From assembly GCF_037042905.1 (NCBI RefSeq), contig NC_087251.1, forward strand, positions 310,001-374,000: 64,000 nt of DNA, written 5' to 3'. The DNA is from Lytechinus pictus. Taxonomy: Eukaryota. Every line of letters begins with the position of its first letter. The stretch's first letter is position 1. The position numbers and the translations under genes are program-made. The notes below the pieces were generated by a model. It did no database searches, was not told where the DNA came from, and saw only the letters and a list, made by a program, of their open reading frames with translations. Shown piece after piece: positions 5,741 to 62,800 of this stretch.

Positions 5741-7590
5741 AAAAAAGGATCAAAGGAGATTCCAGGAAATTATAGACCTATTTCTGTATTACCTATATTG
5801 GCAAAAATATTTGAGAAAATCGTTAATGATAGGTTGATGAGATTTCTAGAAGGTAACAATGTATTGCAAAAACATCAATATGGCTTCAGGAAGAAATATA
5901 ATACAAAATTATCAGTTGTCAATTTATGTAATGCCCTCCTGAAATCATTAGATGGAGGGAAAATAACGTAAGGAGTTTTTATTGATTTTCAAAAGGCATT
6001 TGACACCATCAACCATGATATTCTAATTAAAAAATTGTCTCATTATGGAATACGCGGATTTGCCCTCCAATGGTTTGTGGATTATTTGAGCAACAGATCT
6101 CAGTTTGTTAAATACAAAGACGTCATGTCTCTGCACATGAAAATTTCTTGTGGTGTTCCACAGGGATCAGTTCTTGGTCCAACTCTCTTTCTTATATATA
6201 TATATATAAATGATTTGCCAAACTCGACATCCTTCTTTAACTTCAGGTTATTCGCAGATGACTCAAATTTGTTCCACACCTTTGGGGCTGGAGAGACTGA
6301 TATCGATATGAACGAAGTAAATGTGGAGTTGAATAAGGTGCAACAATGGTGTTATTCCAACAAATTTACAATCAATCTTAGTAAATCTGATTATATGATA
6401 ATTAAGAGCAAAAGGAGATTAGTAAATGTAACAGGTTCCCTTGATATAGCAGGGACCACACTGTTTGAGGTGAATGATGTATCTTTTGTTGGACTGCAAA
6501 TTAATAAGCACCTCACGTGGGATGCGCATATAAAAATTGTAAACAGAATAATCCGCTCAAAAGTAGGTATCTTGTTCAGACTCAGGCACTTTGTTCCAAG
6601 AAGCATTTTGATATTGAACATTATATAAGGCACTTATACAACCACACCTGTCGTATGGCATCGAGGTGTGGGGGAGCACCTACAAGACCAATTTAAATTG
6701 TATTTTCTTGGCCCAAAAAATGGCAATGAGAGCTTTAACCTTTAACCCGAGAGGTGCCCACTCTGATCCCCTGTTCAAAGCATTGAATATTTTGAATGTA
6801 CATAAAATTCACTTCCTCTCCATTTCAACATTCGTCTATGATTTATTGCATGGTAGGTTACCACACTCTCAAATTGGGTACTGTCAGATAATAGACCATA
6901 AATATGCTACAAGGAGTAAAGATGCTGATCAATTATATCTCCCAATATGCAGAACCACACAGGGCCAGTTTTCAATTTCTTTCATGGGATCAAAACTTTG
7001 GAATTGTATACCAAATTATATAAAGGAAAGGAAATCAAGGAACACTTTCAGAAAGGCATTATTTGCTTACCTAAATACAAGTACAACCAACCCTCTAATT
7101 TAATTCTGACAAGAGAATAAAAAATATTTCAATAGAATATAAGAGTATTCTAGATAAAGCTCTCATTCTAATTGTATGTTTCATATAACGTGGTGATTTC
7201 TCAAACAACATTTATAGCATTATTCACTGTTCACACATATTTCTTTTATGTAAAAATACCAAAGATTTGAAGGAATCAGTCTCGACTAGCACTTGTGCTA
7301 CCTTCTGGTTCCTTCTTATTACAACAACATTCAACCATCTTTTTGTTAGATTATCAATATTGGAAACTGTGACTGGGATCTTAAAAAACGTTAAAACATT
7401 TGTTTCAGGTTTATACACCCACGTCACATTTTTTATATTCAGATTTATCGTTTGTATTCTCATTTTATCCTTTATAATGTTAGCAATTACATCTGTATAC
7501 TAGAATAGTTACGTTTGTGCTGTGATGTTAACACATTGTTATCGTTATTGTTATTGTTGTTAAGTAAACAAATAAACTCAAACAAAAAAA
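5741..7590 (+). mobile_element. 5'-truncated CR1/L2-group LINE; RT pseudogene plus 3' UTR
   Basis: NYRPISVLP, DFQKAFD, GVPQGSVLGP and FADD motifs; in-frame stop near 5969 and frameshift near 6628; AATAAA and A-rich tail at ~7570-7590. Confidence 0.92.
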
Positions 7591-7786
7591 ATAATAATAC
7601 TGGCAGTATGAAGGAAAGAAATACCTTTTTTTGTACACACAAATGTCTGAATTAACTACTACTTACTTTAATTATGTTCCCCCCGAAATGAAACCTACCA
7701 TGTAATTATGATGCCTATATTTGAAGCTTATTAGGATCCCAGTTTGAATCTTACTCGTCTGCTCATGCTGATATAATTTATGCACA

Positions 7787-8149
7787 ATGAATTCATCCCA
7801 TGATGTACCCGACTTTATTAACTTTACTCTTCTTTCAGAACATGATGTTAAAAAACTTATAACCAAGTTCAGCAAAAAGTCGTGTGCATCGGACCCAATG
7901 CCCACAAAGATTCTTTTACAGTGTACGGACACACTGATTCCCACCATCACATCTCTAATTAATCTCTCATTGTCATCTGATAATTTTCCTTCGCTATGGA
8001 AAACCGCTATAGTTAAACAAGTACTGAAAAAATCTGGTTTGGAAACAAAATTCTGTAATCTTCGGCCTGTAAGTAATCTGAAGTATGTATCAAAGCTTGT
8101 GGAAGGTGCTGCATACACGCTAATAATGAATCACCTTGACCGCAACTAA
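7787..8149 (+). pseudogene. L2-clade LINE ORF2 fragment (region N-terminal to RT core)
   Basis: KSCASDPMPT...INLSLS..FP..WKTA.VK..LKK...NLRPVSNL...SKLVE. Confidence 0.85.
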
Positions 8150-8439: not shown

Positions 8440-11400
8440 ACGATAGACCTTTCTCTACAACATCGTGGTGATGGCGGAGTCCGTCGTGAACTTTTAGAGG
8501 TCGCATTTCTTACCGATAAGGACGCACTATTATCTAAAGTTGTTTACGATGATATCCACCTTCTCTACCACATCGTAGTGATGGCGGAGGTAATCGTAAA
8601 CTCTTAGAGGACGCATGACCTCCCCAAAAAAGACGCACTATTATCTAAAGTTGTTTACGATGATATCCACCTTCTCTACCACATCGTAGTGATGGCGGAG
8701 GTAATCGTAAACTCTTAGAGGTCGCATGACCTCCCGAAAAAGACGCACTTTTCAAAGTTGTTTACGATGATATTCACCTTCTCTACAACATCGTAGTGAT
8801 GGCGGAGGTAATCGTAAACTCTTAAAGGACGCATGACCTCCCGAAAAAGACGCACTATTATCTAAAGTTGTTTACGATGATATCCACCTTCTCTACCACA
8901 TCGTAGTGATGGCGGAGGTAATCGTAAACTCTTAGAGGTCGCATGACCTCCCGAAAAAGACGCACTATTCAAAGTTGTTTACGATGATATTCACCTTCTC
9001 TACAACATCGTAGTGATGGCGGAGGTAATCGTAAACTCTTAAAGGTCGCATGACCTCCCGAAAAAGACGCACTATTATCAAAAGTTGTTTACGATGATAT
9101 TCACCTTTTCTACAACATCGTAGTGATGGCGGAGGTAATCGTAAACTCTAAAAGGTCGCATGACCTCTAGAAAAAGACGCACTATTATCCAAAGTTGTTT
9201 ACGATGATATTCACCTTCTCTACAACATCGTAGTGATGGCGGAGGTAATCGTAAACTCTTAAAGGTCGCATGACCTCCCGAAAAAGACGCATTATTATCC
9301 AAAGTTGTTTACGATGATATTCACCTTCTCTACAACATCGTAGTGATGGCGGAGGTAATCGTAAACTCTTAGAGGTCGCATGACCTCCCGAAAAAGACGC
9401 ACTATTATCCAAAGTTGTTTACGATGATATTCACCTTCTCTACAACATCGTAGTGATGGCGGAGGTAATCGTAAACTCTAAAAGGTCGCATGACCTCTAG
9501 AAAAAGACGCACTATTATCCAAAGTTGTTTACGATGATATTCACCTTCTCTACAACATCGTAGTGATGGCGGAGGTAATCGTAAACTCTTAGAGGTCGCA
9601 TAACCTCCCGAAAAAGACGCACTATTCAAAGTTGTTTACGATGATATTCACCTTCTCTACAACATCGTAGTGATGGCGGAGGTAATCGTAAACTCTTAGA
9701 GGTCGCATGACCTCCCGAAAAAGACGCACTATTCAAAGTTGTTTACGATGATATTCACCTTCTCTACAACATCGTAGTGATGGCGGAGGTAATCGTAAAC
9801 TCTTAAAGGTCGCATGACCTCTAGAAAAAGACGCACTATTATCAAAAGTTGTTTACGATGATATTCACCTTTTCTACAACATCGTAGTGATGGCGGAGGT
9901 AATCGTAAACTCTAAAAGGTCGCATGACCTCTAGAAAAAGACGCACTATTATCCAAAGTTGTTTACGATGATATTCACCTTCTCTACAACATCGTAGTGA
10001 TGGCGGAGGTAATCGTAAACTCTTAAAGGTCGCATGACCTCCCGAAAAAGACGCATTATTATCCAAAGTTGTTAACGATGATATTCACCTTCTCTACAAC
10101 ATCGTAGTGATGGCGGAGGTAATCGTAAACTCTTAGAGGTCGCATGACCTCCCGAAAAAGACGCACTATTATCCAAAGTTGTTTACGATGATATTCACCT
10201 TCTCTACAACATCGTAGTGATGGCGGAGGTAATCGTAAACTCTTAGAGGTCGCATGACCTCCCGAAAAAGACGCACTATTATCCAAAGTTGTTTACGATG
10301 ATATTCACCTTCTCTACAACATCATAGTGATGGCGGAGGTAATCGTAAACTCTAAAAGGTCGCATGACCTCTAGAAAAAGACGCACTATTATCCAAAGTT
10401 GTTTACGATGATATTCACCTTCTCTACAACATCGTAGTGATGGCGGAGGTAATCGTAAACTCTTAGCGGTCGCATAACCTCCCGAAAAAGACGCACTATT
10501 CAAAGTTGTTTACGATGATATTCACCTTCTCTACAACATCGTAGTGATGGCGGAGGTAATCGTAAACTCTTAAAGGTCGCATGACCTCTAGAAAAAGACG
10601 CACTATTATCCAAAGTTGTTTACGATGATATTCACCTTCTCTACAACATCGTAGTGATGGCGGAGGTAATCGTAAACTCTTAAAGGTCGCATGACCTCTA
10701 GAAAAAGACGCACTATTATCCAAAGTTGTTTACGATGATATCCACCTTTTCTACAACATCGTAGTGATGGCGGAGGTAATCATAAACTCTAAAAGGTCGC
10801 ATGACCTCTAGAAAAAGACGCACTATTATCCAAAGTTGTTTACGATGATATCCACCTTTTCTACAACATCGTAGTGATGGCAGAGGTAATCGTAAACTCT
10901 AAAAGGTCGCATGACCTCTAGAAAAAGACGCACTATTATCCAAAGTTGTTTACGATGATATTCACCTTCTCTACAACATCGTAGTGATGGCGGAGGTAAT
11001 CGTAAACTCTTAAAGGTCGCATGACCTCCCGAAAAAGACGCATTATTATCCAAAGTTGTTTACGATGATATTTACCTTCTCTACAACATCGTAGTGATGG
11101 CGGAGGTAATCGTAAACTCTTAAAGGTCGCATGACCTCCCGAAAAAGACGCGTTATTATCCAAAGTTGTTTACGATGATATTCACCTTCTGTACAACATC
11201 GTAGTGATGGCGGAGGTAATCGTAAACTCTTAAAGGTCGCATGACCTCCCGAAAAAGACGCATTATTATCCAAAGTTGTTTACGATGATATTCACCTTCT
11301 CTACAACATCGTAGTGATGGCGGAGGTAATCGTAAACTCTTAAAGGTCGCATGACCTCTAGAAAAAGACGCACTATTATCCAAAGTTGTTTACGATGATA

Positions 11401-11595
11401 TTCACCTTCTCTACAACATCGTAGTGATGGCGGAGGTAATCGTAAACTCTAAAAGGTCGCATGACCTCTAGAAAAAGACGCACTATTATCCAAAGTTGTT
11501 TACGATGATATTCACCTTCTCTACAACATCGTAGTGATGGCGGAGGTAATCGTAAACTCTTAGAGGTCGCATGACCTCCCGAAAAAGACGCACTA
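8440..11595. repeat. 110-bp tandem satellite, 28 copies plus one degenerate leading copy
   Basis: Unit CAAAGTTGTTTACGATGATATTCACCTTCTCTACAACATCGTAGTGATGGCGGAGGTAATCGTAAACTCTTAAAGGTCGCATGACCTCCCGAAAAAGACGCACTATTATC; five 107-bp variants. Confidence 0.98.
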
Positions 11596-12699: not shown

Positions 12700-13925
12700 C
12701 AAACTCTCCACCTCTGTCTACCACAAGCCCACTCATACAGACCAATACATACCATATGATTCTCATCACGACAATCGGTCAAGAAGGGTCTTGTTAAATG
12801 CCTGTTCGACAGAGCAGCACGTATTATAACTCACCCACCTGAACTCCCGAAAGAAAGAGCACACATACGTGGCGCCTTGTACAGCAACGGCTACCCACGC
12901 CGTTTTATCAAGAACACTTTCAAGAAAAAACAACCACCAAGGGATCAGAAGGTTTTCAAGACTTGCACAGTCTTGCCATACATAGAGGGCCTTTCACAAC
13001 AACTTAAACGCCGATTAGAAGGTCACGGTTTTCCGCTCGGACACCACCTTACACAAACAGCTTGTACACCCCAAAGACCCTATCCCTGATCACAGACGTG
13101 ATGGCGTAGTATACAACATTCCTTGCCAGGGATGTGACGGGTCTTACATCGGAGAAACAGCCCGACCGATAGTTGAACGCATTTCTGAACACAAGCGCGA
13201 TGTTCGGTTACAGCGAACCGACACATCCGCAGTGGCAGAACATGCTTGGGAGAAGCAACACCACCCAGATTGGGAGGGTGTACATTGCATTGCCAAAGAG
13301 AGACATTGGTATACACGCAGGATTAAGGAGGCTATTAGTATACGTCTTTGTCCTAACAACTTCAACAGAGACAGCGGGATCGACATCCCCGACTTCTGGA
13401 TGCGAACCATCCGACAGCACAATACCCCCTTACCTGGCAGTGCACGCCGACCCGATCGTTCCCGGCCCCGAACGAGGGACCGATCAGCTAGTCAACCCCC
13501 GCCCACGGGAAACTAGCGAGCCCGCCAATTTGGTCTAATTTGCATATTGCCGACCCACGGCGTATTTGCATATACCCCCGGCTTATTTGCATATACGGAT
13601 TACCGGCCGCACCGCACACCGACGCAACGGATCAATGCCCACCTATTGTTCTCGCGTTCGTGCGTACGGTCCTGGAGATTAGTATAAATAGAGTACGTTA
13701 TCAGATTATTTTCGTCACTTGATAAAGAGTTGCAGCGGCACTCGAAAGCTCGTGAACTTGTAAGCTAGTGAACACTTTTTGCGAGAGTGATCACGAATTT
13801 CCTAGAAAGCCAGTGAACACTTTTTACGAGAGTGATCACAAATTTCCTTGTTGACCATAGTAGATTACGAGACAAATGAATACCCTCTAGCGATTATTTC
13901 AATCCGCAATAATGAACCTATTTAG
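12700..13925 (+). mobile_element. 5'-truncated Penelope-like retroelement: RT C-terminus, GIY-YIG endonuclease, pseudo-LTR
   Basis: VYHKPTHTDQY, NGYP, LPYIEGLS, GVVYNIPCQGCDGSYIGET, R..EH, SAVAEH, KEAISI...NRDSG; frameshifted; pLTR ~13540-13925 is shared with 29313-29760. Confidence 0.93.
13715..13755 (+). ncRNA. Minimal type I hammerhead ribozyme, core variant
   Basis: TCAC-TTGATAA-A-GAGTTGCAGCGGCACTC-GAAA-GC-TC-GTGA: stem I TCAC/GTGA, stem II GAG.TGC/GCACTC, GAAA core, palindromic AAGCT helix III. Confidence 0.75.
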
Positions 13926-21609: not shown

Positions 21610-23130
21610 GCTCCATCCCCGCTCCGCGAACGCAGACGATCGTAACAAGCAAAGAATCTTGAGCAATGTGGATGGTATGTTAACATCTGCACCATTGACT
21701 TCACCAAAGCATTTGACCTTGTGAACCATTCCAAGGTCATTGAGAAGTTGATCCAACTAGGAATTAATCCTTCAATTATTCCGACTGTTTGTAGTTTTCT
21801 GTCCGATCGTCATCAGGTAGGGGCAGACATCAAGCCAGATGAGCCTGTCATGCGGAGTGCCTCAGGGTATTAAGTTGGGGCCGATCCTTTTCCTTGCTCT
21901 AGTTAACAACGCTGCCATATCTACATCATAGAGATGAAAGTGTATCGATGATTTGAGTCTGGTAGAAGTATTATCTAGGAACCAACACAGTACCATACAG
22001 GATCACGTTGGTGAGCAAGGGGAATGGTGTGCCCTAAATGACGTCACGTCGAAGCCTGAGAAATGTAAAGTTATGCAGGTTTCTTTCTTAAAGAATCCTC
22101 CTTCTCCCATGCTGGAGCCAGGATATCACCATCGCAGACACTCACTCATCTTGAACGTGTTGATTTTCTGATACTCCTTGGTGTAGCAATTCGCTCAGAT
22201 CTGGAATGGGACAATCAGGTCCAACAGATGACCTCACGGGCTTCGCGGAGACTGTACATTCTGTGTGTTCTCAAGAAATTTGGAATTAACGAGAATGATC
22301 TTGTGACCATCTATAAGACCTCCATCCGTCCTCTTGTGCAGTTTGGTTTACGAAAAAGCAGAGTGATGCAATCCAACGGATTAAAAAACGTGCTCTTTGC
22401 TTCATTATGTACCCATCTACCCTATCATATGCACAATGGCTTATTCTTTTCAAATTGCCTATGTTGTGTGACCGCAGGAATGATCTTCTCCATTTTGGAC
22501 GCGGTCTCCTAAAATTGCATCGCCATTGTGACATGCTACCAGCCACTCATCAAAACATCTCTAACCGTAGTTCTGCATTAAGGAATACCCATCGTCTTCA
22601 CTTGCCATGTTGCAAAACTCAATGTTACATGATCTCTGCCATTCCATCCTTAACAAGAATGCTAAATTCCACTGTGTAATTTCTTATTTTGTTCATTTTT
22701 AATGTTTCAAATGAATGTTGATATCATTTTGTCTCTTATATAATTGAACTTGTTAACTCATATACTCTTACCATCAACTTCATTTTGATTCATATACTGT
22801 ATACCCCCTCCCCCCCTGCCCCCATAATCATTTTTCAATGCTGATAGCAACCTCTATCGGTGTTTCGGGCTATCACTGACCAAAACATATTATCTCTATT
22901 CATAAATTTTTTTTTTTTCACGGCTAGCAAGCATAGTTCTGCTAGGCAACAATTTACCTCTAAAATAACTAAGCTATAAACTCAACTGCTGTAGACTTTT
23001 GGTACACTTTATGTTTATGTTTTACTTCTTACCTGGCTACATATGAAACATGTGTATGATTAATAAAGATAATAATAATGACTTGGAAATTATAACATAA
23101 ATTGGTAACGATAATAATAAAATAATAATA
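21610..23130 (+). mobile_element. Heavily decayed CR1/L2-group LINE 3' part
   Basis: Frameshifted DFTKAFDLVNH, GVPQG.KLGP, DDLS and RASRRLYIL...IYKT.IRP; (AAT)n tail at ~23060-23130. Confidence 0.8.
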
Positions 23131-53160: not shown

Positions 53161-54775
53161 TGGTATACCCAGTTGTTGTGTGTCCGGACAGGTTGTGTGT
53201 CCGGACGATCAATTTTAGAATTAGAAAGTCATTTGGAAAAAATTACAAGCGAAGTTTCATCAAATTTTAGTACAAAATTTTAGAAAATATTATAGAGAAC
53301 AAAATAGAAGATGATTACAACTATTGAATTCATATTTTTAGTGTAATCTTAAGACAAAAAAGAAGGCTTCAAAAATATAAAGTGTCCGGACACCCGATCC
53401 CCCATCCTGCATGGCTACCAGGTACATGTATGAATTTACAAACCATGCATGCAAACGGCGCCTCATAAATGACTGTGTTACTGTTAGTGTTACTTTGTTA
53501 GTGTTAATACTAGATTTCTACAATAAAATTACCAATAACAGTTAGGTCAACTCACTCAGTCTAACGTTGCCCTAACGTTATGCGATGTCCCAGCTCTACT
53601 AACGTTATACAGAATAAAACGATTTTCACTAAGAAGATCACGACGCCAGATCCCAGTCGAGTCTTAGAAAGTCGACCGACATTAACGTTAGACAGTCTTA
53701 ATCAACAAACGTAGAGGGCAGCAACACACGGCAGTGTTGCTTTTATTTTAGGAAGGTCCACTTCGCTCAGATTTTGTGACCATTTTCTCCCAGAGCACTT
53801 TTTTGAAAGATTGTAGAGTGGATTTTTTTTTCGTTTGTTAAATGTTTCTTTTTTTTATTGATAATGAAACCTCCAAGAAAATATGTTTAATAATATTATT
53901 TTAGCATATTTGTATTTTTTTTTAATTGTAAAACAAAAGGTAATCATGATTCTTGTAGTTTACATAGCAATAAAAATACCTCAGGACCAAAATCCAATTG
54001 AAACCAGTTGGATTTCCAACTGGTTTCAATTGGTATTAACTGGTTTTCAATTGGTTTTAACTGGAATATAACAATTTCCAGTTGAAACCAATTGAAACCA
54101 GTTGGGCAACTGGAAATCCTAACTGGAACCTGTTGGGCAACTGGAAATCCTAACTGGAACCAGTTGGGTAACTGGAAATGAGTTCCAACTGGAAATAGTT
54201 TCTAACTGGAACCAGTTGGGTAACTGGAAATCCTAACTGGAACCAGTTGGGTAACTGGAAATCCTAACTGGAGCCAGTTGGGTATACTGGAAATCCTAAC
54301 TGGAACCAGTTGGGTAACTGGAAATGACTTCCAACTGGAAATAATTTCTATAACTGGAACCAGTTGGGTATAACTGGAAATCCTAACTGGAACCAGTTGG
54401 GTATACTGGAAATCCTAATTGGAGCCAGTTGGGTATACTGGAAATCCTAACTGGATCCAGTTGAGTAACTGGAAATGACTTCCAATTGGTTTCCAATTGG
54501 GCGTTGTGGCGTGCGCCTGTAATCCAAGTAACTGGATCCAGTTGAGTAACTGGAAATGACTTCCAACTGGAAATAATTTCTAACTGGAACCAGTTGGGTA
54601 ACTGGAAATCCTAACTGGAACCAGTTGGTATAACTGGAAATCCTAACTGGATCCAGTTGAGTAACTGGAAATGACTTCCAATTGGTTTCCAATTGGGCGT
54701 TGTGGCGTGCGCCTGTAATCCAAGTAACTGGATCCAGTTGAGTAACTGGAAATGACTTCCAATTGGTTTCCAATT

Positions 54776-54952
54776 GGGCGTTGTGGCGTGCGCCTCTAAT
54801 CCAAGCTGTGGGGAAATTACAAATTGATGCAGAGGTTCGAGGTTCGAGCCCTGGTCACATCTTTCGGATGGTGACATTAAAGGTCGGTCCAGGCGTAAAT
54901 AATCATATCTGATTGATACACGTCTGACAAAACTCAAATACACACACACACA
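54776..54952 (+). mobile_element. SINE-like element with 7SL-like head, B box, Nin/Deu-like segment and (CA)n tail
   Basis: GGGCGTTGTGGCGTGCGCCT(G/C)TAATCCAAGCT; GGTTCGAGCCC at 54841-54851; TCTTTCGGATGGTGACATTAAAGGTCGGTCC; (CA)6 tail; possible TSD ATTGG. Confidence 0.7.
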
Positions 54953-57900
54953 TTGGAAAATTTCCAGTTACCCAACTGGTTCCAATTGAAACCAGTTAAT
55001 TTGCATATTATCTGCCAGTGTGCACAGATTAATGTTTTATGTGATTCATCATCATTTACAATGTATCTATTTAATTATTTTCCATTTCAAGTACCACACT
55101 TGTTTCAGATAAGTGTTTAGAATGCTTAGCAGTGAAAACCATGTTCATAAATGTTTTAGATTATAATTAAAACAGATTATAAGATAATTAGTACACCACT
55201 AACTGGTATAATAATAAATACATTATATTTGAAGATCTTTCACATAAATATATACATATGAAAGTCTATTTTATCAATGGCCTTTTCATTGGTATAAATA
55301 GAAATATTGCACTGCTTCTGTGTTGGCATGAGCAATATAGTGCAAATGCTAATTAATTTGTAACTAATAACGTTCATTCCAACTGGAAGTTCCAATTGGA
55401 AACCAGTTGGAAACCAATTAGTTTCAACTAGTTCCAGTTGAAAGCTGTTGCCTCCAATTGGTTTCAACTGGAACCAATTGAAACCAGTTGCCTCCAATTG
55501 GATTCAACTGGTTTTAATAGGGAAATTGGAACAACTGGAACCAATTGAAACCAGTTGCCTAATTGGTTTCAACTGGAACCAGTTGAAACCGATTGCCAAC
55601 TGGTTCCAGTTGCCCAATTGGTTTTAACTGGAACCAATTGGCAACTGGTTCCAGTTGCCCAATTGGTTTCAATTGGAACCAGTTGTTCCAATTTCCCTAT
55701 TGAAACCAGTTGGCCAACTGGTTTCAATTGGTTTTGCTCTAATTGGATAAAGAATGGTTTTGTTAAACCTGTTTTTACCATCTTTCTGTGAATCTTTATT
55801 TGACGACTACAATAATACTATTGTAAACTGTGAGAAAGAAATTCAAGTACCCGAAAACATTCCAGAGCCAAATTTACAACAAAAAAACTCGAAGGATTCA
55901 AGTTTACTTTATCAAGATTTTGAAAACATATTTGCTGTAAAAGGTCTTTACTTTGTACATCTAATTGTTAGATCTATTCTACCAAAAATTTAAGAACTTC
56001 GAATTTTATTTAAGAGAAAGAAGCTTGCAGTCATTGCTTTCACAGAAACATGGCTAAATGACTCGGTAAATGATGAAGAAATTAATATAGATGGATACAA
56101 AGTAATACGCAATGATAGATTATCAGGCTCTGGGGGTGGTGTATGTTTTTATGTCAGAAATGATATTGCATTCAATATCATAGATGTTTTAAGTACAGGT
56201 GATTCTGAATCACTGTGGATTAATTTGCTTCTACCAAGATCAAAACCAATTATTGCTGGTGTCATTTATAGGCCTCCATAAAGCAATCAATTTATTGAGA
56301 AGATGTCAAGTATTCTCGATACATTAAAGAAAGATGATGAAATTATACTTTTAGGTGATATGAATGTTTGTCTTTTTCAGAAATCTCCACTGGCTAAAAA
56401 TATACTGATCTATTGAGTCTTCATGGATTTAGCCAACTGATCAAAGATGCAACCCGTGTCACATACACATGTTCTTCTTTATTGGACCATGTTATTTGTA
56501 ATAACGAACAAAAAATAAGTCAAAGTGGTGTTATTGATCTTGGTATAAGTGACCATTCTTTTACTTTCTGGACACGAAAGAAAGTTAGGCTGGCTATAGG
56601 TGTTCACAGAAAAACTGATATTAGATCGTTAAAAAAATATAGCGAAGAATCTTTCAATCTTAAACTGTCTGCCGTTGATTGGTCAGAATTAACCCAATGC
56701 ACTGACGTAAATAAGGCTTGGTCAGTTTTTCAAAATACTTTTATTTCAACGTTGAATATGATAGCGCCTCAAAAACGGATTAGAATTAAAAAGAGATCAG
56801 AAAACTGGATGACTAAAGATATTATTTCTCTTATTTGAGAAAGAAATGTGGCGTATAAAAAAATGAAGAAAAATCTAAGCGATGAGGATTATGACACGCT
56901 TTCCAAAAGATACAAGAAATTAAGAAATATGGTTCAAAGAGAGGTGAAAAAGGCCAAATTAGAATACCTACAAAATAAAATAGAAGAAAATAAAAATGAT
57001 TCTAAAAGACTTTGGCAGAATATAAAAAGTTTGGGATTAAAAAAGAAAAATGGAAAGGACCAAGAATTAGTCGTTTCAATTGACGGAGAATTATGTCATG
57101 ATAAGATAACTATTTCCAATGAATTCAATTCCTATTTTACAAATGTCGCAGCTACGTTGGTAGATAAACTTCCATCTTGCAAAGACATTTTCAGTGCAGA
57201 CAGTGAGAACATTCGTGAATTTTAAGGAAAAAAGGGTATAAGCCAAGATAAATTTGAATTATTACCTGTTAGTGATCAATTAATTTTTAATGAGTTGCGT
57301 AAATTAAATGTATCAAAAAGCACTGGGTTAGATTTGATCCCTGCTAAATTTCTAAAAGAAGGAGCAAAGAGTTTGTACAAACCATTAAATTGTTTGATAA
57401 ATCTATCTATCTTTACTAGCACTTTCCCAGAGGATATGAAAATTGCAAAAGTAACTCCTATTCATAAGAAGAAAGATAAAACTGCTGTTGAAAACTATAG
57501 ACCTATCAGTGTTTTAAGCATAGTATCAAAAATTCTAGAAAAGGCGGTATGTGTTCAGATCGAAAAATATTTTAAAGAAAATGATATGATTTACGAATAT
57601 CAGTCTGGTTTTCGACATGACTATTCGACTGAGACATGCCTTATTCACTTGACTGATTATCTGAGAACTAATATTTCTAAGGGACAATTTGTTGGGATGG
57701 TACTCCTAGATCTTCAAAAAGCATTTGATACAGTTAATCATGGCATCTTATTGAAAAAATTACAAATAATGGGTTTTATATTAACCAGGCTACTGTAGCA
57801 TGGTTTTAAATCCTACTTGTCGAGTCGACATCAAGTAGTGGCTATTCGCGATATTCGTTCCAAAATTATGCCTATAACGTGTGGAGTTCCACAGGGAAGT

Positions 57901-58499
57901 ATTTTAGGCCCAATTCTATTTTCAACTTATATCAATGACATGTCTATTTGTATAAAAGCTGACTGTAAATTATTATTGTATGCAGATGATAGCGTACTAC
58001 TTTGTTCAAATTCCAACCCAAAATCTGTTGAGGAAACACTTAGCGAACAGCTGTCTACATGTGTCGATTGGATGACTGATAATAGATTATCGTTACACTT
58101 AGGCAAAACCGAGAGCATTCTGTTTTGTTCTAAAAGTAATTATAAAACTTCATTTGAATTTGAAGTATCATACAATAATAAGACAATTCAGAGGAAAGAA
58201 TCTGTAAAGTATTTAGGCATTGAATTGACTAGATCCCTTTCATTTTCATCTTTAGTAGAATCAATCGTGAAAAAGGCGAATGCCCGTTTGAAATTTCTGT
58301 ACAGGTATCAAAGTTGTATGGATCAAAAAGCAAGGCGTATTCTCTGTTTTGCTCTTATTCAGAGTTTATTTGACTATGCTAACCCTGCTTGGTTTAGTGG
58401 AATAAGCGAACTCGATAAAAAAGAAGTTGAAAACTAGATTTCAATTCATCATGCGGACGAATTAGGTGGTCTGTCAGACAAATACTAGTTGATAAACAT

Positions 58500-59817: not shown

Positions 59818-62800
59818 AATATTTCCCATAGACTTTACACGTAAGCAAAATAAGAGAATCTCAAATCCAATTTTGCAAGTGAAATACGGGCATGATCCCG
59901 GCATCTGATCTGAAAATGAAGGCAACACTCCCGAAAGCTTAGAATCTCAGCTACAACATACTAAAAGCTCAGGGATAATTGACAAGAAAAAATGGAGATA
60001 TAGCTCACGAAATAGAGGAATGTAGAATCTAGTTTTGACAAAAAGTCATGTCCCATAGAGATTACACGCAAAATGAGTAAAAATGACATGTCATTATTAT
60101 TTGCAATTTTTGAGGATGATCCATTTTTTAAAATGAAAAATAAAGGCAATAATTCAGAAAGAGTAAGACCTATGCTACAACATATCAAAAATTGGGCGAA
60201 ATTTGATCAATATTCACGGAGTGAGAGCCAAATTTGCATAATTATAATGACGTCATAACACGCAAAATTGATATTTTGACTTCCGACGCCATTTTGATGA
60301 CGTCATAATATACGTTAGGGTCAAATGAGACATGAAATCATATGTATGATTCATATTTTATCGAAATATGAAAAAAAAATCCGTTCGTTCTGAAGAGCTA
60401 CAGTGAACTTTTAATAGGCATGTTAATTTTGCCCATATAGAGCCTATGGAAAGAGCTCGCGCGCACGCGTGCTGCAAACTTTAATGGGTGCTCATTCCCT
60501 CATTAATGATCGTAGAGAGTTGATCGAGGTATCAATTTGATCAGAATTATATCAATAATAGATACGCATGAAAAAAAACAGCAAATATATGCTGCGTAAC
60601 GCCGTTACGCACGGAAACGTGCGCGCATACGTGTGCGCGCGCAAAATCTTGAAATGCTTAAAATGACCTGAATCGTACCCAAAAAAATTTATAGGCCATT
60701 TGGAGAATTTTTTTTGCTTTGACGCACGCGTACGCGCGCCTCATGACCTTTACATGACCTTTGATGACATTGACAGACGACCTTTGACCTAAAGTTTATT
60801 TGATGTGAATATGATTGACTATCAATTATCCGTTATGTAGATATGATCAAATTAAGAATTTTACAAAATGGCGTGTAGATGACGTCATCATGACCAGGTA
60901 ACCTTGTAAAGCTACGTATGCCGTCTCTATGATGGACTCTATACATGACAAAAAATTCAGCAAAATTGATCCAGCCTATTCGGAGAAAACTTGGCGACAA
61001 ACATAGGTGCGAAAAATAAATAAATAAAGAAAGAAAGAAAATTCTGACGAAATTAAGAGGTGATCTGTCATAGACAGACCACCTAATTATACAGAATAAA
61101 ATGGTTAGATTAATTAACTGTTCTGGTCCCAGAACCCATGTTGGTTACACCGAACTCTCTGGAGCAGGTTTTCTTGAAGTCAACAAAAGATCAAAACAGC
61201 TTATTTTGCACCATGTGCATAAAATCTATCACAATAGATCGAATCATTACATTGGATCAAACTTTAACTTAGTTACCGAATTACATAACTATAATACAAA
61301 AAACAGCCATTTAAACTTTTGCTTACCAGAAAGGGTAGGTAGTATTGGTAACTCCTTTCATTACAATGCTATTGGAATTTCCTTCCCAATGATATAAAGG
61401 AAATAGGAAACTTTTTGCATTTTAAGAGGAAATTGAAAGAATATCTTTCACTTGAGAGTCAAAGAGAAGATGCAAATGATATGTTATACGGTTGATTTAG
61501 CCTGAATACTGACCACGTTCTTTTCTCTTCTCTACCAGGTATTATTATTTATTTTACATAGTTTGATTGAAGCTTCGATATGTCCTTTCTTCTATTCTTT
61601 CTATTTCTTTGATCTCTTCCTTCTATTCTCCTCTTCGTGTTGTTATTGTTGTCGCCGTTTTTGCTGTTGTTCTTCTCATTATTTTTCTTCCTCCTCCTTT
61701 TCTTCCGTCTCCTTCTCCTCCTCCTCCCCTTTCTTCTTCTATTCCTCCTCCTTCTTCTCCTTCTTTTCTTCTTCTTCTTCGTTATATTCTTGTATATATT
61801 ATCTATATATCTTATTTATTGGTAATAGTAAATTCTGATTTTTTTTTCTTCACTTTTTTAATATGTAAATAGTATAATTTTACCATTTTATTATCTTAAT
61901 TCTGTATGTCGAGGACCCCACTGGAAATAAGCTTTCGAGCTTTCGTGGGTCATCCTGTGCAAGCCTGTTGTTTTAATGCTACTGTATATATGTTATGGTG
62001 ACTTGCCAAATAAAATCAATCAATCAACTGGATTTTGGTCCTGGGACATAGACTGATGACATTTGTGTTACCGTTCTTCTGCTTAATTTCGCTGCCCCTA
62101 CCAAATCTACAAAGGTAACGCCAGAGCCAAGACCGTGATGTTCTGGTCTAGCCGCGCCGAAACTTCGCCGGTCACCTGTACCTCGGTGCGCGTACTGCGC
62201 TGCGTGAATGATAATGCTGACTGCACTGCACTGGCATGATAATCTCGACGCGACTCGACTTAGCTATATAGATATGGACTTAAAAGATATAGACTTGGTC
62301 TGTCATTGATGTGGCACTATGGCGGATGAGCAACGATAAATATTCAAGGTTAGAATTTTAATTTTCACTTACAGTGTAGATTGTAGTCTGAAAATCTAAA
62401 ATAATTATGCTATATCCACAAATCCAACCCACATTTTGCAATCCATCAGGCAGGATCGAATACGCCACTATAAACAAAACAGCAAAGCCAAGTCCCAGTC
62501 TATAAACGTTAGACAGAAATTATCTGGTTCAGTATCGAGCTATGTATATTCCGACGGGTCTTGACTTGAGACGAATTATCAAGGGGCGAAGGTCTATGTC
62601 ACATCTACCATTTTCATTCCATAATTTTACAAAAATTTGTGTTAGCATATGCATGCAGCCCACCGTACCCTACCTCAGCACCGACCGGCCCGGGGCGCCG
62701 GGGCGGCCATGGCGCTTGTATACTCAAGAGGCGGTGCTGGATTGTGTAGGCGCATTATGGTGCAGCGAAATTTAGATGAAGACGTATCAACCTCACGTAT

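Follow-up and report, generated by a model that had tools for sequence, protein, structure and literature searches.

The element studied in the current work was confirmed to be a single copy of a young, dispersed, 7SL-headed SINE of about 180 nt in a sea urchin genome. It is located in a window (the whole stretch of DNA that was analysed, 64,000 nt) representing the forward strand of Lytechinus pictus NC_087251.1:310,001-374,000 (assembly GCF_037042905.1), and the genome searched comprises 811.7 Mb in 368 contigs. The reading which we regard as reasonably probable is that this SINE of ~1,300 copies arose when the first 45 nt of a host 7SL gene were joined to an older SINE body consisting of a B box, a Deu core and a hairpin tail, and that its propagation would involve RNA polymerase III (Pol III), an I-group LINE and SRP9/14.

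Composition of the element

All the parts which a preliminary description, prepared from the letters of this DNA, had assigned to a candidate SINE were recovered, and the presumed invertebrate host is a sea urchin. The start had been placed at 54776, 3 nt inside the true start at 54773, from which a head corresponding to nt 1-45 of 7SL RNA, i.e. the Alu 5' domain (helices 2-4), extends to 54817, as defined by alignment to host 7SL gene L037 and by an Rfam SRP match (54773..54817, + strand, as are all parts named below). The predicted A box (7SL nt 6-15, a position taken from the available text of PMC7245038) occupies 54778-54787, while the linker (54818..54840) contains a 7-nt direct repeat that is missing from the 'short' subfamily. 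The tRNA-type, T-loop-like B box (54841..54851) was recognised by its sequence and aligns with the B boxes of two tRNA-like-headed sisters, L135 and L136. It precedes a short Deu/Nin (Inv-like) core that forms a hairpin (54854..54890) and a second, better hairpin (54890..54926), previously overlooked, which is common to the end of a host I-group LINE. The element is completed by an A-rich spacer and (CA)n tail (54927..54952, with (CA)n at 54940-54952). The short target-site duplication that had been suspected is indeed present and measures 5 bp, its 5' copy (54773-54777) overlapping the first bases of the element and its 3' copy being located at 54952..54956.

Three occurrences of the head were counted in the window, as against none in 100 shuffles. 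The two upstream 31-nt heads (54498..54528 and 54694..54724) had been counted correctly, but represent duplicates amplified with a tandem repeat, in the units of which (periods 81 and 196) they reside, and not separate insertions. Since both retain G24, which has since changed to C in the full copy, they were duplicated after the insertion. An uninterrupted unit of the tandem repeat hosting the insertion is found at 55390. Neither Rfam at gathering scores nor ARAGORN returned a match across the whole window. The insertion site is part of a repeat of short palindromic units arranged in two opposed blocks (54008-55735), which is foldback- or MITE-like.

The head derives from host 7SL RNA

Metazoa_SRP was the best Rfam family for all three window heads (E values of 4e-8, 6e-5 and 2e-4), in agreement with the 7SL relationship originally proposed. 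These matches cover only the first ~45 model positions, and it is this restriction to the 5' part that keeps their scores below gathering; Rfam gave no tRNA match for the heads at E≤10. The host genome contains seven full-length 7SL genes (272-283 bits), to which the first 31 nt of the SINE correspond in 30 positions. Over nt 1-45, the common form of the family matches L037 in 42 of 46 columns, as against 38 for L031 and L033, while the window copy matches L037 in 39 of 46. The alignment is gap-free over the first 30 nt, and not throughout as earlier described, since two 1-nt gaps follow. A paired change, involving the 5' end and nt 43-45, is common to L037 and the SINE, and the first-helix compensation earlier ascribed to the SINE is already present in the sequence of the host 7SL gene.

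The head is closer to host 7SL than to the Rfam consensus, and scores 59-70 against the host 7SL genes, whereas 33 distinct host tRNA-like sequences, all from Lys and one other group, give no score above 24, so that a better fit to tRNA, previously named as evidence against the proposal, was not observed. Judged by these alignments, the head derives from host 7SL.

The end of the 7SL match coincides with the closure of the Alu 5' domain in the Rfam structure. Comparison of the remaining 7SL sequence with SINE nt 46-176 gave a score of 23, which was reached by 68-73 of 500 shuffles, a search of the SINE for the 3' Alu strand found none, and the central deletion that joins the 5' and 3' parts of 7SL in Alu, B1, Urop and Ebu1-1-type elements is absent. 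Nt 33-46 also resemble the beginning of the V domain, a similarity which was set aside, as host 7SL accounts for these bases. By these comparisons the SINE lacks all 7SL sequence beyond the Alu 5' domain, unlike Alu, B1, Urop and hagfish SINE1, and the notion of an Alu-like chimera is supported for the 5' half of the Alu domain only. In the Repbase sense, SINE1 elements have a 5' head from 7SL, here seen in the L037 alignment, and are uniform chimeras rather than mere full-length 7SL retrocopies, here seen in 81 copies; the family is a SINE1 variant and not an Alu-type member.

Copy number, age and subfamilies

A genome DNA search returned 43 matches from the 40 scored of 1,657 candidates; the window copy itself aside, these are 91-97% alike and have unrelated flanks. 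Exact 32-nt heads number 665 in the genome and 34-nt tails (at most one mismatch) 1,135, so that the finding of a single copy only, which the preliminary description had named as refuting, did not occur. Contig C1 contains 50 heads and 44 exact tails, with 22 of each kind forming pairs, and from this overlap ~1,330 copies are estimated genome-wide, a figure likelier to be too low than too high. Viral contigs searched for the SINE gave no matches. Twenty loci chosen on C1 by their tails all proved to be copies of the family, 13 being full with altered heads, six 5'-truncated or split, and one of both kinds.

The sample used for defining subfamilies consisted of 111 copies minus 30 (21 with the same flank and nine second tandem members), the resulting 81 being skewed to young copies. 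Subfamilies vary in the helix 4 loop and in the 7-nt repeat ahead of the B box, and 19 copies of this young-biased sample share an identical 163-nt core. In 41 copies chosen by pattern, mismatch of the body to the common form has a median of 1.1%, while two copies, L094 and L103, are much older. The length of the (CA)n tail varies between copies (median 14, maximum 28 nt).

With respect to the SINEBase definition, as given in the available text of PMC3531059, the family is shorter than 1 kb, interspersed and present in at least 100 copies, and its simple-repeat tail, duplications, 5'-truncated copies and LINE-derived 3' end point to insertion driven by a LINE. It falls short of at least 60% identity to tRNA, 5S or 7SL over at least 60 nt, the 7SL match being 91% identical but 45 nt long, and the tRNA-like part being ~30 nt and non-contiguous; the same definition allows exceptions given shown Pol III transcription.

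Four copies are arranged head to tail with an identical short spacer between them (L017:1331-2036), much as in the TSD-(SINE-TSD)n arrays known from bivalves. Part of the head recurs in reverse-complement orientation as the 5' flank of L003, L020 and L065, which suggests fold-back in reverse transcription.

Insertion sites and an empty histone gene

Target duplications of at least 5 bp were identified at 26 of 74 independent sites, compared with 3.4% (maximum 10.8%) in 300 shuffles, and 43 of the 74 sites are without duplication; this strict scoring skips the window copy because of the overlap described above. No general target consensus was found across 76 sites. One insertion concerns a 7.5-kb histone repeat with the order H1-H4-H2B-H3-H2A on one strand, the H2B of which is identical to a record named sea-urchin embryonic H2B, a match that places the host among the echinoids without fixing the species. 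In this array (L197 and L198, on contig C66) the SINE resides in the 5' leader of early histone H3, between the TATA box and the start codon, in two of the three repeats examined, while the third is empty. The empty H3 site proves insertion with a 6-bp duplication.

These data bear on the suggestion, which we consider extremely improbable, that there is no self-propagating family and that the copies represent 7SL chimeras retrocopied one by one, passively duplicated sequences or contaminating primate Alu. Some copies have been multiplied passively within other repeats (L039-L044, L085 and the histone repeats). However, a single head/body junction is present in all full copies and the subfamilies are defined by changes in common, which already refutes a non-family reading; furthermore, 76 flanks are independent, the head matches the host and not the Rfam consensus, and an insertion is found in a sea-urchin histone gene for which an empty twin is present.

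A new head on an older SINE body

In the metagenome contigs L135 and L136 the body, with 75 and 77 of its 79 nt identical, follows other heads, which are tRNA-like by their A- and B-box motifs as assessed by eye, and for which Rfam gave no tRNA or SRP match at E≤1. The B box of these sisters is positioned at an equal distance from the Deu core, and runs X15 and X16 (sea-urchin and echinoderm metagenome) contain the body from approximately the B box onwards, preceded by different 5' letters. From these comparisons it follows that the head was swapped onto an older body. We infer as the simplest history a single template switch, by which 7SL nt 1-45 would have taken the place of the front of a tRNA-like head: during reverse transcription of a tRNA-headed Deu SINE, a switch onto 7SL RNA would have exchanged the 5' half of the tRNA head for the 7SL piece, from which the 5' end and the A box would stem, while the B box would be a remnant of the old head. 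A DNA search of this genome for the parent SINE with the L136 head returned nothing, a result which does not show its absence.

The Deu/Nin-like nature of the first hairpin appears to hold, as the core aligns with a tRNA-headed host SINE in 28 of 34 columns (12/14 motif-search matches), the same motif having served to select that SINE, and the segment after the B box resembles by eye the Deu part of BivaMD-SINE1 in the available supplement of PMC4824008. The central Deu/Nin domain of described DeuSINEs measures 70-330 bp, that of the present SINE ~35 nt.

An improbable alternative is that head and B box both originate from a 7SL locus, where a read-through transcript would have lost its interior, captured a B box located behind the gene's terminator and then been joined to the Deu body. 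A perfect tRNA-type B box is present 19-43 nt downstream of the terminator in six of the seven host 7SL genes (L031-L036), and the linker plus B box match such a downstream box in 24 of 33 columns, a tie with tRNA-Lys. The 23-nt linker alone likewise ties between the sequence behind host 7SL genes and the L136 head (score 16 each, 1% of shuffles), and the B box has no match in the 7SL interior. However, L037, the 7SL gene nearest to the head, is without a downstream B box within 300 nt, and the B box of the sisters was already at the same distance from the Deu core, so that one switch explains all. A single template switch onto 7SL RNA is the preferred origin.

The position and sequence of the box behind the 7SL genes suggest an extragenic promoter element, on which no paper was found in our literature search. 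SINE copies also precede, by ~33 nt and on the same strand, three 7SL genes that form a cluster on C10 (L031:877-1467, L035:1294-1467 and L036:1315-1467), and probably represent one insertion multiplied with the gene. L053, L054 and L074 are dispersed tRNA-like genes of 71-72 nt with a TCA anticodon and common flanks, designated SeC by ARAGORN, and may represent either a pseudogene that has become repeated or a tRNA that reads opal codons.

An I-group LINE as likely partner

The 70 RNase-H-bearing loci examined (30, and a further 40 selected for their coverage of families) include several families whose 3' ends form a hairpin alignable with the SINE tail; the best-matching LINE ends are L252 and L253, with 44 of 55 columns (score 58 versus a shuffled maximum of 32). 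A LINE sharing the 3' tail, for which the preliminary description had proposed a search, is represented by the I-group end L252. In an alignment of six sequences containing the shared hairpin, pairing is retained in 96% of cells, and both sides are changed in 4 of the 13 pairs; the covariation exceeds that of all 500 shuffles and of the slid controls for these six, related, sequences, and the number of changed pairs did not exceed shuffles (40/500). A pattern designed to leave out most SINE copies retrieved 102 LINE ends of this hairpin type, many of which are 5'-truncated. An exact 3' flank common to a SINE site and a LINE end was found in 3 of 87 cases, as against 0 of 87 at five offsets; a fourth apparent common site was dropped, being due to a head-to-tail SINE. 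The 30 top RT loci (L1/Tx1-like and CR1-like) gave no tail match, the best score being 26, with many of their ends located beyond the fetched flank.

Accepted cases of 3' homology between SINEs and LINEs, as described in the available text of PMC3747384 and PMC11481361, span 35-61 bp at 72-95% identity, a range which includes the present pair with 55 columns at 80%. Pfam detected APE, RT and RNase H in the sister family L248, and the features of the I group were observed, namely APE/RT/RNase H in ORF2 and zinc knuckles in ORF1 (L248, with RNase H in L252 and the frames in L287). L287 is near full length and contains a 1,125-aa frame that is broken in RNase H, while no intact copy of the partner LINE was found among 12 loci. 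The tail repeat of the L252-type LINE is (AAC)n versus (CA)n in the SINE, and the tail is only 80% alike; given the (AAC)n repeat, the working partner may be a close sister family. The common hairpin makes it likely that the SINE is copied by a host I-group LINE, the reverse transcriptase of which would bind the 3' hairpin and prime at a nick, a process expected to leave (CA)n tails of variable length, target duplications that are short or missing, and some 5'-truncated copies. Considering the presence of Nimb elements in sea urchins reported in the available text of PMC4758252, the LINE clade is presumably Nimb.

I-group LINEs and the SINE recur at one position in two repeats (L050, L056, L057, L229, L252, L253 and L257-L286), and many very short LINE ends have since been amplified with one of these two repeats.

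SRP9/14 binding and transcription

According to the available text of PMC12265939, SRP9/14 binding needs G4, U23, G24 and GGC-GCU loop pairing. Among 80 copies (those without an indel in nt 1-30), G4, U23, G24 and the two loop triplets are kept in 73, 80, 78, 74 and 76, respectively, while the window copy carries G24C, for which the same source reports weaker binding. The available text of PMC11760393 describes a 46-nt 5' Alu domain which binds SRP9/14 and is required for Alu jumping, but which cannot spread further without a B box; as far as its sequence indicates, the SINE is a 5' domain of this 46-nt type plus an attached B box. SRP9/14 binding by the SINE head is accordingly a prediction, by which the folded 5' domain would recruit SRP9/14 and take the RNA to ribosomes making LINE protein. 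In the commonest subfamily, the helix 4 loop has lost two bases and helix 4 pair probabilities are 0.35-0.63, versus 0.85-0.99 in 7SL, and the fold of the whole SINE RNA is no better than that of shuffles (z -0.23).

It is conceivable, if rather unlikely, that the SINE, its origin and its LINE are as proposed, and that the 7SL piece acts as transcription start and A box only, SRP9/14 binding being lost or irrelevant. A hairpin-recognising LINE may not need ribosome docking, and the sisters carry the same body behind tRNA-like heads without any 7SL piece, which implies that this piece is dispensable. Helix 4 is, moreover, most altered in the commonest, youngest subfamily, and the 3' Alu strand is missing from the SINE, whereas the whole Alu domain matters according to the available text of PMC7245038. 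Yet the 7SL piece ends exactly where the 5' domain closes, ~30 nt beyond what an A box needs, the subfamily changes leave G4, U23, G24 and the loop triplets untouched, and a 46-nt domain is enough in Alu (PMC11760393, available text). In addition, the 20 loci chosen by their tails comprise only 7SL-headed or truncated copies. A head predicted to recruit SRP9/14 is part of the favoured reading.

The SINE is likely transcribed by Pol III, which would proceed to the first run of four Ts in the flank; 79 of 81 copies contain no internal T4. Of the reads in a quarter of one RNA run, 1,701 fell on the SINE body, equally distributed between both orientations; they demonstrate presence in RNA only and could stem from mRNA-embedded copies.

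Relation to known SINEs

In the available text of PMC7245038, PMC13023118 and PMC10886601 (2020, 2024, 2026), 7SL-derived SINEs are limited to supraprimates, shrew mole and hagfish, and the same literature argues that it is the whole Alu domain with one particular deletion which makes 7SL SINEs work. The preliminary description had correctly listed Euarchontoglires and hagfish, and had omitted the shrew-mole Urop (PMC13023118, available text). No invertebrate 7SL-headed SINE was found in a search confined to openly accessible papers rather than Dfam or Repbase entries, and within those papers the family has no earlier description. The sea-urchin SINEs in the available text of PMC3747384, PMC4824008, PMC4758252, PMC5804259 and PMC3531059 are tRNA-headed.

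The closest parallel is hagfish SINE1-1_EBu (Kojima 2020, available text of PMC7245038), which similarly combines a 7SL head with an older tRNA SINE, ends in a microsatellite tail, has a family of similar size (2,363 copies) and uses a non-L1 partner through a LINE-derived 3' end. In the hagfish element, 5' as well as 3' sequence of the Alu domain is retained together with the B box of 7SL itself, the partner is RTE and the duplications measure ~17 bp, whereas in the urchin SINE nt 1-45 alone are combined with a tRNA-type B box, a Deu core and a tail of I-group type, and duplications are short or missing. Alu, B1, Tu and the shrew-mole Urop, as described in the available text of PMC13023118, also have the 5' domain of 7SL at their start, complete with the nucleotides that bind SRP9/14, but a central deletion of ~183 nt joins their 7SL ends, they end in poly(A) and they use L1; the join is absent in the urchin SINE.

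In 5S-headed DeuSINEs (available text of PMC4824008 and PMC4758252), a second Pol III RNA was likewise switched onto a tRNA-headed Deu SINE with part of the tRNA head left. Their heads consist of 5S rRNA and partial tRNA and their tail is of CR1/L2 type, as opposed to the 7SL donor, the ~35-nt Deu core and the I-group tail found here. Sea-urchin SINE2-3_SP, a DeuSINE, provides a further example of a Deu core in an echinoderm, the partners of sea-urchin SINEs in the same source being CR1/L2 (PMC3747384, available text), versus the I group here. SINE2-3_SP, the other SINE2-n_SP and the bivalve Nimb-tailed SINEs are all listed as tRNA-headed and are set apart by their descriptions in the available text of PMC3747384 and PMC11481361.

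We tentatively propose, at somewhat less than an even chance, that this family is the first 7SL-headed SINE outside vertebrates and a fourth independent origin of such elements, in which 7SL was cut to the 45-46-nt SRP9/14-binding minimum, and which out-competes its tRNA-headed parent on a hairpin-recognising I-group LINE. If true, SRP9/14-mediated ribosome docking would be a portable, LINE-independent booster of retrotransposition. The family breaks both the taxonomic limit and the architecture of 7SL SINEs, as it contains the 5' domain alone, equal to the 46-nt minimum of cell assays. Since its sisters have the same body and tail behind tRNA-like heads, they offer a natural paired comparison of SRP9/14 recruitment and promoter as reasons for the success of Alu-type heads. 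The family also provides young insertion markers for a model animal.

Other repeats in the window

A tandem array with a 110-bp unit (28.7 copies, 95% matches) occupies positions 8451-11595 of the window. Reverse transcriptase frames of CR1/L2 type (Pfam RVT_1), broken by a (GATA)n-rich stretch, are found at 56398-58437 and 61074-61397. Further pieces, labelled by eye, belong to LINEs (5972-7103, 7772-8149 and 22069-22679) and to a Penelope-like element (12760-13516).
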